Part shown: in pieces, positions 28,447 to 38,556 of the stretch
Position numbering within the stretch: the first letter of the stretch is position 1
How the letters are laid out: every line of letters starts with the position of its first letter
Assembly: GCF_013315695.1 (NCBI RefSeq)
Contig: NZ_CP054353.1
DNA length: 64,000 nucleotides
Direction: 5' to 3' (one strand)
From: Escherichia coli
Lineage (GTDB): Bacteria; Pseudomonadota; Gammaproteobacteria; Enterobacterales; Enterobacteriaceae
The notes under the pieces: generated by a model
Database searches by the model: none
What the model was told of the DNA's origin: nothing
Seen by the model: the letters and a program-made list of their open reading frames with translations, nothing else
Position numbers and translations under genes: made by a program

Positions 28447-28868
28447 CCTCGCGCATACAGCCGGGCAGTGACGTCATCGTCTGCGCGGAAATGGACGAAC
28501 AGTGGGGCTATGTCGGGGCTAAATCGCGCCAGCGCTGGCTGTTTTACGCGTATGACAGGCTCCGGAAGACGGTTGTTGCGCACGTATTCGGTGAACGCAC
28601 TATGGCGACGCTGGGGCGTCTTATGAGCCTGCTGTCACCCTTTGACGTGGTGATATGGATGACGGATGGCTGGCCGCTGTATGAATCCCGCCTGAAGGGA
28701 AAGCTGCACGTAATCAGCAAGCGATATACGCAGCGAATTGAGCGGCATAACCTGAATCTGAGGCAGCACCTGGCACGGCTGGGACGGAAGTCGCTGTCGT
28801 TCTCAAAATCGGTGGAGCTGCATGACAAAGTCATCGGGCATTATCTGAACATAAAACACTATCAATAA
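28365..28868 (+). CDS. insB: IS1 InsB (expressed as InsAB' by -1 frameshift)
   Basis: 167-aa ORF overlapping insA. Confidence 0.9.
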
Positions 28869-34526: not shown

Positions 34527-36622
34527 TGAAAAAAAGACATCTGCTTAGCTTACTGGCGCTGGGCATTAGCACAGCTTGCTACGGCGAAACATATCCTGCG
34601 CCCATTGGTCCGTCGCAATCGGATTTCGGTGGCGTAGGATTATTACAAACGCCCACCGCGCGCATGGCGCGGGAAGGGGAGCTGAGCCTGAACTATCGCG
34701 ATAACGATCAGTACCGTTATTACTCAGCTTCAGTGCAACTCTTCCCGTGGCTGGAAACAACGCTGCGCTACACCGACGTGCGCACCCGGCAGTACAGCAG
34801 CGTAGAAGCATTCTCTGGCGATCAGACGTATAAAGATAAAGCCTTCGATCTCAAACTGCGTTTGTGGGAAGAGAGTTATTGGCTGCCGCAAGTGGCGGTT
34901 GGTGCGCGGGATATCGGCGGTACGGGGCTGTTTGATGCGGAATATCTTGTTGCCAGCAAAGCCTGGGGGCCGTTCGATTTTACGCTCGGCCTGGGCTGGG
35001 GATATCTGGGCACCAGCGGTAATGTGAAAAATCCGCTCTGTTCAGCCAGTGATAAATATTGCTATCGCGATAACAGCTACAAACAGGCGGGATCTATCGA
35101 CGGTAGCCAGATGTTCCACGGCCCGGCCTCACTGTTTGGCGGCGTGGAATACCAGACGCCCTGGCAACCGCTGCGCCTGAAACTGGAGTATGAAGGCAAT
35201 AATTATCAGCAGGATTTTGCCGGGAAGCTGGAGCAAAAAAGTAAGTTTAACGTCGGGGCGATTTATCGCGTTACCGATTGGGCCGACGTTAACCTTAGCT
35301 ATGAACGTGGCAACACCTTTATGTTTGGCGTCACGCTGCGCACCAACTTTAACGATCTGCGTCCTTCGTATAACGATAACGCCCGCCCGCAATATCAACC
35401 GCAGCCACAGGATGCCATTTTGCAGCATTCGGTGGTGGCGAATCAGTTAACGTTGCTGAAATACAACGCCGGACTGGCCGATCCGCAGATCCAGGCGAAA
35501 GGCGATACGCTGTATGTCACGGGCGAGCAGGTGAAATATCGTGATTCGCGCGAAGGGATCATCCGTGCTAATCGGATCGTGATGAACGATCTGCCGGATG
35601 GGATCAAAACGATCCGCATTACGGAAAATCGCCTTAACATGCCGCAGGTGACGACGGAAACCGATGTCGCCAGCCTGAAAAATCATCTCGCCGGAGAGCC
35701 GTTGGGCCACGAAACGAAGCTGGCGCAAAAACGCGTCGAGCCAGTGGTTCCGAAGTCCACCGAGCAGGGCTGGTATATCGACAAATCACGCTTTGATTTC
35801 CATATCGATCCGGTGCTGAACCAGTCGGTCGGTGGCCCGGAAAACTTTTACATGTATCAGCTGGGCGTGATGGGAACGGCGGATTTGTGGCTGACGGACC
35901 ATCTGCTGACCACCGGCAGCCTGTTTGCTAACCTGGCTAACAACTACGACAAGTTTAACTACACCAATCCGCCGCAGGACTCGCACTTACCGCGCGTTCG
36001 TACCCATGTGCGCGAGTATGTGCAGAATGATGTCTATGTGAATAACCTGCAAGCCAACTACTTCCAGCATCTGGGCAACGGCTTCTACGGTCAGGTCTAC
36101 GGTGGTTATCTCGAAACCATGTTTGGCGGTGCGGGGGCAGAAGTGTTGTATCGCCCGCTGGACAGCAACTGGGCGTTTGGTCTGGATGCCAACTACGTTA
36201 AACAGCGCGACTGGCGTAGTGCAAAAGATATGATGAAATTCACCGACTACAGCGTGAAAACCGGACATCTGACCGCCTACTGGACGCCATCTTTCGCTCA
36301 GGATGTGTTAGTGAAAGCCAGCGTCGGGCAGTATCTGGCTGGGGATAAAGGCGGCACGCTGGAGATCGCCAAACGCTTTGATAGCGGCGTGGTAGTGGGG
36401 GGCTATGCCACCATCACGAATGTTTCGAAAGAGGAGTACGGCGAAGGGGACTTCACCAAAGGCGTATATGTCTCTGTACCGCTGGATCTCTTCTCGTCTG
36501 GCCCAACACGCAGTCGTGCGGCAATTGGCTGGACGCCGCTGACGCGTGACGGTGGTCAGCAACTTGGGCGTAAGTTCCAGTTGTATGACATGACCAGCGA
36601 CCGTAGCGTCAATTTCCGCTAA
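34526..36622 (+). CDS. yjbH: outer-membrane lipoprotein YjbH (GfcD-like)
   Basis: 698-aa ORF; start overlaps yjbG stop (TAATG); C-terminal aromatic residue typical of beta-barrels. Confidence 0.88.
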
Positions 36623-36633
36623 GTCATGGGAAA

Positions 36634-36670
36634 GGTGCCAGTTTTCGCACTCACTGGCACCTTTATTCTT
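36634..36670. terminator. bidirectional terminator between yjbH and yjbT
   Basis: GGTGCCAGT ... ACTGGCACC hairpin followed by TTTATTCTT. Confidence 0.6.
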
Positions 36671-36947
36671 AATGGCCTGTCGAGCCATCAGGAACGCAGT
36701 TCACCCCCGGTTTGCGATCTGGTGTGTAAAGGCGAAAACATTCTGTCTTCCTGTCCGTCGATATTGGTTGCAGGTCTGGTTGCCTGAGCGACTGGGCCAT
36801 CATTGGGCTGGAGACATTGCTTTGCGGTAGGTCGGTTTTATCAGCAGTACCGAGCGGACCAGCATAAGCAGGAAGAACAGAGACTGATAACATCAAAGCA
36901 GCAAAATAAGGCTTCATTTTTACCACCTTTATCAGGTTACGTTTCAT
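36669..36947 (-). CDS. yjbT: small secreted protein YjbT
   Basis: 92-aa ORF with signal peptide (AYAGP); alternative start at MKPYFAAL (36917). Confidence 0.6.
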   Translation of the reverse strand: MKRNLIKVVKMKPYFAALMLSVSVLPAYAGPLGTADKTDLPQSNVSSPMMAQSLRQPDLQPISTDRKTECFRLYTPDRKPGVNCVPDGSTGH

Positions 36948-37161
36948 TTGTTCCAGAGGAACATTGTCGATTTTTTGCGCATTGCTGGTGGCTGGGAATC
37001 ACCTGAATGGGTGATTTTTTTGGGCTGTGTGTTTTGCCAGATGCGACGTTGATGGGAGATGCCCACTTAATCTAGCTGAACAAAACATACACAAAAAATA
37101 TAGATCTCCGTCACATTTTTGCGTTATACAGGAAGCTCGCCACTGTGAAGGAGGTACTGCT

Positions 37162-37572
37162 ATGACGTCACTCTCTCGTCCGCGCGTGGAGTTTATCTCC
37201 ACCATTTTGCAGACCGTACTCAATCTTGGCCTGCTGTGCCTCGGCCTGATTTTGGTTGTCTTCCTCGGCAAAGAAACGGTGCATCTGGCTGATGTGCTGT
37301 TCGCGCCAGAACAAACCAGCAAATATGAGCTGGTAGAAGGGCTGGTGGTTTACTTTCTCTATTTCGAATTTATCGCGCTGATTGTGAAGTACTTTCAGTC
37401 CGGTTTTCACTTCCCGCTACGTTACTTTGTCTATATTGGGATCACCGCCATTGTGTGCTTGATCATCGTCGATCATAAATCACCACTGGATGTGTTGATC
37501 TACTCGGCAGCGATCCTGTTACTGGTGATCACCCTGTGGTTGTGTAATTCGAAACGGCTGAAGCGGGAGTAA
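37162..37572 (+). CDS. psiE: phosphate-starvation-inducible membrane protein PsiE
   Basis: Start [11 protein letters not shown] (136 aa) with GAAGGAGG RBS. Confidence 0.9.
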
Positions 37573-37600
37573 AAAAAGGCGCTCCGTGGAGCGCCGAATA
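37573..37600. terminator. bidirectional terminator between psiE and malG
   Basis: AAAAAA-GGCGCTCC-gt-GGAGCGCC hairpin. Confidence 0.65.
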
Positions 37601-37665
37601 ACAGTCACAAGTTGGGATAACGTAAGTTGAGGGTGCAGCGGCATAACATTGGCAGAACAACATCT

Positions 37666-38556
37666 TTAACCTTTCACACCACCTGCCGTCAGGCCGTTGA
37701 CCAGCCAGCGTTGAGCCAGCAAGAAGACGATGGTGATCGGTAATGCAGACATCACGGCAGCGGCGGCAAAGTCACCCCACAGGTAGTTTTGCGGGTTGAG
37801 GTATTGCTGCATCCCCACAGCCAGGGTGTAGCTGTTTACGTCACGCAGTAATAGCGACGCGACCGGAACTTCAGTAATGGCAGCGATAAACGACAGGATG
37901 AACACCACCGCCAGAATCGGTACTGACAGCGGCAACAGGACAAGGCGGAAGGCCTGCCACGGTGTCGCACCATCCAGCGCCGCCGCTTCTTCCAGCGAAC
38001 TGTCGATGGTTTCGAAATAACCTTTGATGGTCCAGACATGCAGCGCAATCCCGCCCAGATACGCGAAAATTACGCCGCCGTGAGTATTCAGGCCAATGAA
38101 TGGAATGTACTCACCCAGACGATCAAACAACGCATACAACGCGACCAGTGAAAGTACTGCCGGGAACATCTGGAAAATCAGCATTCCTTTCAGCAGCGTC
38201 GCTTTGCCTGGAAAGCGCATACGGGCGAAAGCGTAGGCGCAGGTGGTGGAGAGCGCCACAATGCCAATCGCGGAAATCCCGGCGACCTTTACCGAGTTCC
38301 ACAGCCACAGCAGTACCGGGAATGGCGGTGGCGTAATGCGGCCATCAGCCTGTTCCACACTAAAACCTAACGCCAGTTTCCAGTGATCCCAGGAGATTTG
38401 CTCCGGGATCAGGCTGCCAGTCGCGAAGTTCCCCTGACGCAGCGAGATGGCGACGACCATCAGCAGCGGGAACATAATCGCCGCGATAAAAAGTAGCAGT
38501 AGCAGGTGAGTAATAAACAAACGTGCTTTTTGCGATTTCGGTTGGACCATTGCCAT
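37666..38556 (-). CDS. malG: maltose ABC transporter permease MalG
   Basis: 296-aa ORF. Confidence 0.95.

Follow-up and report, generated by a model that had tools for sequence, protein, structure and literature searches.

A common xylE-less allele of the Escherichia coli psiE–malG junction and the predicted MalH sRNA gene within it

Introduction

Did this Escherichia coli strain lose a xylose transporter gene from between psiE and malG, or did its lineage never carry the gene at this site? XylE is a low-affinity D-xylose:H+ symporter, and the affinity classes of XylE and of XylFGH are well established. The two routes of xylose uptake have also been restated in the literature (PMC8534289). 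The first-pass annotation of the window, by which we mean the whole 64-kb stretch of DNA analysed here, had drawn attention to the short distance between psiE and malG, had placed xylE at this position in K-12, and had suggested on that basis that the strain lacks the symporter. Here, the junction was compared with that of K-12 and with the same site in other members of the Enterobacteriaceae, and population counts were taken on 5,426 complete RefSeq E. coli genomes.

Results

Structure of the psiE–malG junction

The ORFs of the window place psiE and malG as convergent genes 93 bp apart, and their positions confirm both the size and the coordinates of the gap as they had been annotated. The PsiE and MalG proteins share 99.3% and 100% amino acid identity with their K-12 counterparts, respectively. 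The gene psiE is annotated as such in the MSB1_4I, CFT073, and 042 genomes, and the RefSeq annotation of MSB1_4I names both psiE and malG, with a spacing equal to that of the window. The features of the junction are as follows.

37162-37572, plus strand: psiE, phosphate-starvation-inducible protein, 136 aa (ATG-started ORF of 136 codons, from its translation)
37666-38556, minus strand: malG, maltose ABC transporter permease, 296 aa (ORF of 296 codons)
37573-37665, no strand: psiE–malG intergenic gap, 93 bp (exact stop-to-stop distance)
37571-37577, no strand: A7 tract, U7 on the minus strand, the U-tail of the predicted malG/MalH terminator (from junction alignments)
37571-37673, minus strand: match to the MalH sRNA, 103 nt (from identity to the K-12 ncRNA malH, b4807, at 4532-4634 of locus L001)
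37578-37595, minus strand: predicted intrinsic terminator hairpin of malEFG/MalH (from a terminator scan and RNA folding)

The gap opens with AAAAA; joined to the final two bases of the psiE stop codon (TAA), this makes up the A7 run at 37571-37577. This run is the empty site, that is, the place occupied by the xylE cassette in K-12, Citrobacter, and K. oxytoca. Within psiE, a C>T change at 37456 alters codon 99 (R99C) and is private to the window, being present in none of MSB1_4I, K-12, CFT073, 042, the four other Escherichia species, and the two Citrobacter species with which it was compared. A query of 838 bp spanning the junction had no 100% match among the complete E. coli genomes.

Comparison with the xylE cassette of K-12

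In K-12 MG1655, the gene order is psiE (b4030), xylE (b4031, minus strand, 1,476 bp), the sRNA gene malH (b4807), and malG (b4032), and the first-pass placement of xylE between psiE and malG was therefore right. The spacing was checked as well; the psiE–malG interval of K-12 measures 1,890 bp including xylE, unlike the 93 bp of the window. The order and orientation of the flanking genes are the same in both, and nucleotide identity between K-12 and the window is 98.8% in psiE and 98.1% in malG. The difference amounts to 1,797 extra bp in K-12, located between the psiE stop codon and the malG terminator and consisting of the xylE terminator hairpin, xylE as the sole annotated gene, and a 276-bp AT-rich promoter region (34% GC). 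The cassette begins just after the psiE stop codon and a short A-run and ends at the A7 run before the malG terminator, so that psiE faces the xylE terminator in K-12 and the malG terminator in the window. The 93 bp of the window and the malG-adjacent 93 bp of K-12 are 100% identical, and four placements of the cassette junction are possible within the A-run (an ambiguity of 3 nt).

The ends of the K-12 cassette showed no marks of a mobile element (IS, transposon, or integron), no inverted repeats by eye, and no target duplication beyond the A-run. A decayed duplicate of the psiE end at the right edge of the cassette was also considered by eye; it reached approximately 11 of 18 matches in E. 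coli, mostly within the A-run, and chance level in Citrobacter, and was not counted.

The MalH sRNA gene and its terminator

Judged by its sequence, the 93-bp gap appears to be the MalH sRNA gene together with the terminator tail of malG, not a bare spacer. Positions 37571-37673 on the minus strand are identical to K-12 malH (b4807) at 103 of 103 nt, and this stretch is co-linear with malG, covering its last codons, its stop codon, and its 3'UTR. A scan of positions 36500-38500 against Rfam at E ≤ 1 matched no family, and the identity of MalH was thus taken from the agreement with the K-12 annotation instead. MalH has been described as an Hfq-associated sRNA of approximately 104 nt derived from the 3'UTR of malG, which includes the final part of the malG ORF with the stop codon and has a Rho-independent terminator as its 3' end (Iosub et al. 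2020, RNA Biol, PMC8081044). In K-12 experiments, it was produced from the malEFG mRNA by RNase E processing, was bound by Hfq, and paired with ompC, ompA, and MicA; regulation of ompC and tuning of maltoporin expression via MicA were reported (PMC8081044).

The G+C-rich hairpin at 37578-37595, GGCGCTCC-(loop)-GGAGCGCC, consists of a stem of 7 pairs, 6 of them G-C, and a loop of 4 nt. Read on the minus strand, from 37595 to 37578, it is directly followed by TTTTTTT, as predicted for a Rho-independent terminator at the 3' end of MalH. The plus strand reads GAATAACAG after the hairpin and has no T-run there, and a consensus scan called this hairpin a terminator on the minus strand only. The first-pass description of the hairpin as a bidirectional terminator is thus not supported; for malG it would be a terminator of the canonical kind, for psiE no more than a non-canonical stop. 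Since the U-tail of the MalH terminator shares 2 nt with the psiE stop codon in the xylE-less allele, psiE probably has no canonical terminator of its own there. In K-12, the same U-tail faces the xylE promoter region, whereas it lies over the psiE stop codon in the window.

An alignment of 16 enterobacterial malG 3' regions revealed conserved blocks and a hairpin stem that is kept throughout, with stem pairs that change together (GGCGCTC/GAGCGCC to GGCGGCC/GGCCGCC). Because the sequence in the window is identical to that of K-12, termination of malEFG and production of MalH should be unchanged.

The same site in other Enterobacteriaceae

A psiE-anchored scan of species-representative genomes yielded 80 loci, with E. 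fergusonii, E. marmotae, Salmonella, and the GTDB E. coli representative not among them. In each of E. albertii, E. whittamii, Escherichia sp. E1V33, and Escherichia sp. MOD1-EC7003, the psiE stop codon, the A-run, and the malG terminator follow one another directly, with gaps of approximately 91–94 bp and a sequence nearly identical to that of the window. Both genes were complete at 76 of the species-representative Enterobacteriaceae loci, where the gap was at most 130 bp in 40, 131–800 bp in 25, and larger in 11; the direct psiE–malG junction is found in most Enterobacteriaceae.

Nine of the large gaps hold xylE, namely those of eight Citrobacter species representatives (C. werkmanii, C. youngae, and C. 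gillenii among them) and that of K. oxytoca. These cassettes share the insertion point with K-12, and their xylE terminator and promoter sequences are homologous to those of K-12. In a search for XylE homologues, the Citrobacter proteins fell within the 90% cluster, followed by K. oxytoca and Entomohabitans (88%), Shimwellia (82%), and Salmonella (81%).

Two species bear traces of change at the site. C. braakii ATCC 51113 retains a decayed xylE cassette of approximately 280 bp (L020, 6412-6691) in a 382-bp psiE–malG gap, of which there remain the terminator with the 3' end, 57 nt from the interior, and the end nearest the promoter; no cassette remnant was detectable in the window or at any xylE-less locus other than that of C. 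braakii. In K. oxytoca, 15 nt from the psiE 3' end, CTGAAACGCGA[G/A]TAA, are directly repeated on either side of the xylE insert (L069, 6396-6411 and approximately 8307-8321), and approximately 190 nt of extra DNA separates the xylE promoter region from the second copy. This repeat adjoins the native terminator, which is identical to that of the xylE-less K. michiganensis; K. michiganensis and K. grimontii, the sister species of K. oxytoca, are without the insert. The 15-nt repeat reads as a clear insertion scar, and its position beside the native terminator shows that, at least once, a xylE-less allele gave rise to a xylE-positive one.

Other genes occupy the gap elsewhere. Locus L040 (6692-11003) holds a PTS EIICB gene, an isomerase, an asparaginase, and a LacI-type regulator; locus L057 (6397-8086) holds a LysR regulator and a HAD hydrolase; and in C. 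sedlakii (L038, 5013-10459), PTS, GFO/IDH, DUF7916, and GntR genes lie at the gap with xylE beside them. The psiE–malG gap thus looks like a recurrent insertion point for genes of sugar use. It is possible, as a tentative extension, that the junction of the psiE and malG terminators acts as a family-wide exchange point for sugar-uptake cassettes and that xylE is an ancient cross-species presence/absence polymorphism of core-like divergence, repeatedly swapped by recombination through its conserved flanks, which we consider somewhat doubtful.

Absence of xylE from the strain and its distribution in E. coli

A tblastn search of the 64-kb window with K-12 XylE returned nothing (best E = 4.4), and no XylE-like ORF (an MFS sugar porter of approximately 491 aa, D-xylose:H+ symporter) was found there. 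The window is set apart from the complete genome of MSB1_4I (NZ_LR898874.1) by 6 SNPs over 43.7 kb and a single change in a homopolymer. A chimeric query was constructed from a 2.5-kb lamB–malM marker and the full K-12 xylE, the marker being far enough from the site not to join with it. In MSB1_4I and all 40 top-ranked relatives, this query matched through the marker only, in one place each, with no xylE. Its 9,051 places in total corresponded to 5,425 markers and 3,626 xylE copies, and the matching records were equal in number to the matching genomes, which speaks against a plasmid copy of xylE. Within the tested scope, i.e., the 64-kb window together with MSB1_4I and the 39 next-closest genomes, xylE was found nowhere else, and the view that the strain is without the low-affinity symporter is supported for the window and the near-identical MSB1_4I.

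Among the 5,426 complete genomes, psiE and malG were contiguous as in the window in 1,786 (approximately 33%), and xylE was present in 3,638, in 3,626 of which psiE, xylE, and malG formed a single block. The two junction states are complementary, and xylE is practically never located elsewhere. The genes psiE and malG adjoin directly, without xylE, in CFT073, 042, IAI39, and CE10, with an annotated gap of 93 bp in MSB1_4I, CFT073, and 042, while xylE is carried by K-12, O157:H7 strains, and an O111:H8 strain. By established typing, we take the xylE-less reference strains to belong to phylogroups B2, D, and F, and the xylE-positive ones to A, E, and B1. In the literature, a passing remark names xylE as one of the transporters that are enriched in the B1/A sublineage of E. 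coli (PMC6896753); our literature searches turned up no study devoted to the xylE indel. The xylFGH genes were present in 5,406 of the 5,426 genomes (>99.6%).

The window therefore carries the xylE-less allele, which is shown by these counts to be a lineage-level state of about one-third of the complete E. coli genomes, not a private deletion; the junction is an ordinary, already known, and already annotated polymorphism.

Origin of the xylE-less junction

Two explanations particular to the strain can be set aside as highly improbable. Only 64 kb of the strain was read directly, and xylE might on that account sit at another chromosomal site or on a plasmid outside the window; against this stand the single marker place of the chimeric query in MSB1_4I and each of the 40 closest genomes, the lack of plasmid copies, the fact that a psiE–xylE–malG query hit only 5,433 places in 5,425 genomes, and the canonical block in which 3,626 of the 3,638 xylE copies reside. 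A recent strain-specific deletion, or a collapse in the assembly, would likewise account for the short gap, with nothing in its favour beyond the difference from K-12. This explanation is refuted by the identical junction in 1,786 independent complete genomes, CFT073 and 042 included, and in four other Escherichia species, and the junction sequence equals the malG-proximal sequence of K-12 up to the A-run.

What remains is the polarity of an old indel, for which we favour, with a probability of roughly 60%, that the lineage of the window never had xylE at this site over a precise loss. Under this reading, the lineage would descend from Escherichia ancestors without a cassette here, in which the malG 3'UTR (MalH) and its terminator ran straight into the convergent psiE stop codon as they do in the window; the 93-bp junction would probably be the older state, and the added one would be the 1,797-bp cassette that K-12 and other A, B1, and E strains carry in the A-tract separating the psiE stop codon from the malG terminator. 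Ancestral absence is favoured because xylE is missing, with the same junction, from all four of the other Escherichia species and from the reference strains sampled in three E. coli phylogroups, because the direct junction occurs throughout the family, and because documented losses leave scars, not clean junctions. The alternative is an old secondary loss, in which the ancestor of Escherichia or of E. coli had the cassette and a precise deletion occurred between the A-tracts preceding the xylE and malG terminators; the deletion allele would then have reached B2, D, F, and the other Escherichia by descent or by homologous recombination, and the window would display a derived lineage-level state. 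We regard this as the less probable account, though one of real weight. The divergence of xylE matches that of the flanking core gene malG among E. coli, Citrobacter, and K. oxytoca (83/83, 81/83, and 85/85% at the nucleotide level), and such core-like divergence in three genera at an identical site fits long vertical residence followed by repeated loss, which counts against ancestral absence. The A-runs form direct repeats at both ends of the cassette, so that a deletion between them would recreate a clean junction. The flanks, moreover, are clean between xylE-positive and xylE-less E. coli strains: K-12 and 042 have the psiE 3' haplotype in common, differing at only 2 sites in the psiE flank and at none in the MalH flank, and the SNP patterns of psiE and malG revealed no tract of imported donor DNA around the K-12 cassette, which neither proves nor excludes a gain. 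Losses do occur, as in the scar of C. braakii and in partial E. coli deletions such as that of TOE17, in which a 17% remnant persists. However, an old loss requires either several independent precise deletions or introgression across species, the direct junction prevails in most of the family, and K. oxytoca records a change in the opposite direction. On balance, ancestral absence thus remains the preferred reading.

Other features of the window

The window has several further features of note. Between yjbD and lysC (24694-28868), the annotation of MSB1_4I gives a slipin-family pseudogene, a nucleotidyltransferase gene split by IS4 (25959-27305), and an IS1 (28171-28868); the stretch is fully covered in only 2 of the 5,426 genomes. 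The same annotation has dinF, a MATE efflux and SOS gene at 52832-54934, interrupted by IS1 at 53711-54408. A DUF2713-family gene at 56134-57138 is an intact 334-codon ORF in the window, whereas the homopolymer near 56838-56845 is A7 in MSB1_4I, against A8 in the window, and the MSB1_4I annotation records a frameshift at that point; the two phases may truly differ, or the MSB1_4I record may contain a sequencing error. Between pepE and rluF (16154-22672) is a PTS operon of the L-sorbose type, made up of genes for a regulator and an SDR, IIA/IIB/IIC/IID components, sorE, and a shikimate-dehydrogenase-like gene; this block is also annotated in CFT073. Between malM and ubiC (45739-47319), there is a SopA-family ORF of 526 aa whose identity to other E. 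coli drops fast, and only 19 genomes reached ≥99% over the 2.5-kb marker, in which its 5' part is contained.

Discussion

The strain would be without XylE, and its import of xylose should continue via the near-universal XylFGH ABC transporter; with xylFGH present in nearly all complete genomes, only the low-affinity route of uptake would be missing. The practical weight of the finding is small, and K-12 is not to be taken as the default E. coli at the psiE–malG locus. Metabolic models and inventories of transporters built for strains of phylogroups B2, D, and F, among which are most extraintestinal pathogens, should leave out XylE and represent xylose uptake by XylFGH. The one useful addition made here concerns the gap itself, which annotators should recognise as the likely MalH sRNA gene, with a terminator that appears canonical in one direction and a U-tail overlapping the psiE stop codon. 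The patchy yet core-like distribution of the cassette makes a tidy case of a long-lived indel polymorphism and opens no new question.

Set beside known systems, the window shares its psiE–malG adjacency with CFT073, 042, IAI39, CE10, and MSB1_4I, and the private psiE SNP (R99C) is found only in the window. In the Citrobacter freundii complex and K. oxytoca, the cassette sits after the psiE stop codon and its A-run and before the A-run and the malG terminator, a position at which the window holds none. Relative to the published MalH, the window would encode the same annotated 103 nt, including the intrinsic terminator, and the conserved blocks and hairpin of this sRNA are common to the Enterobacteriaceae.
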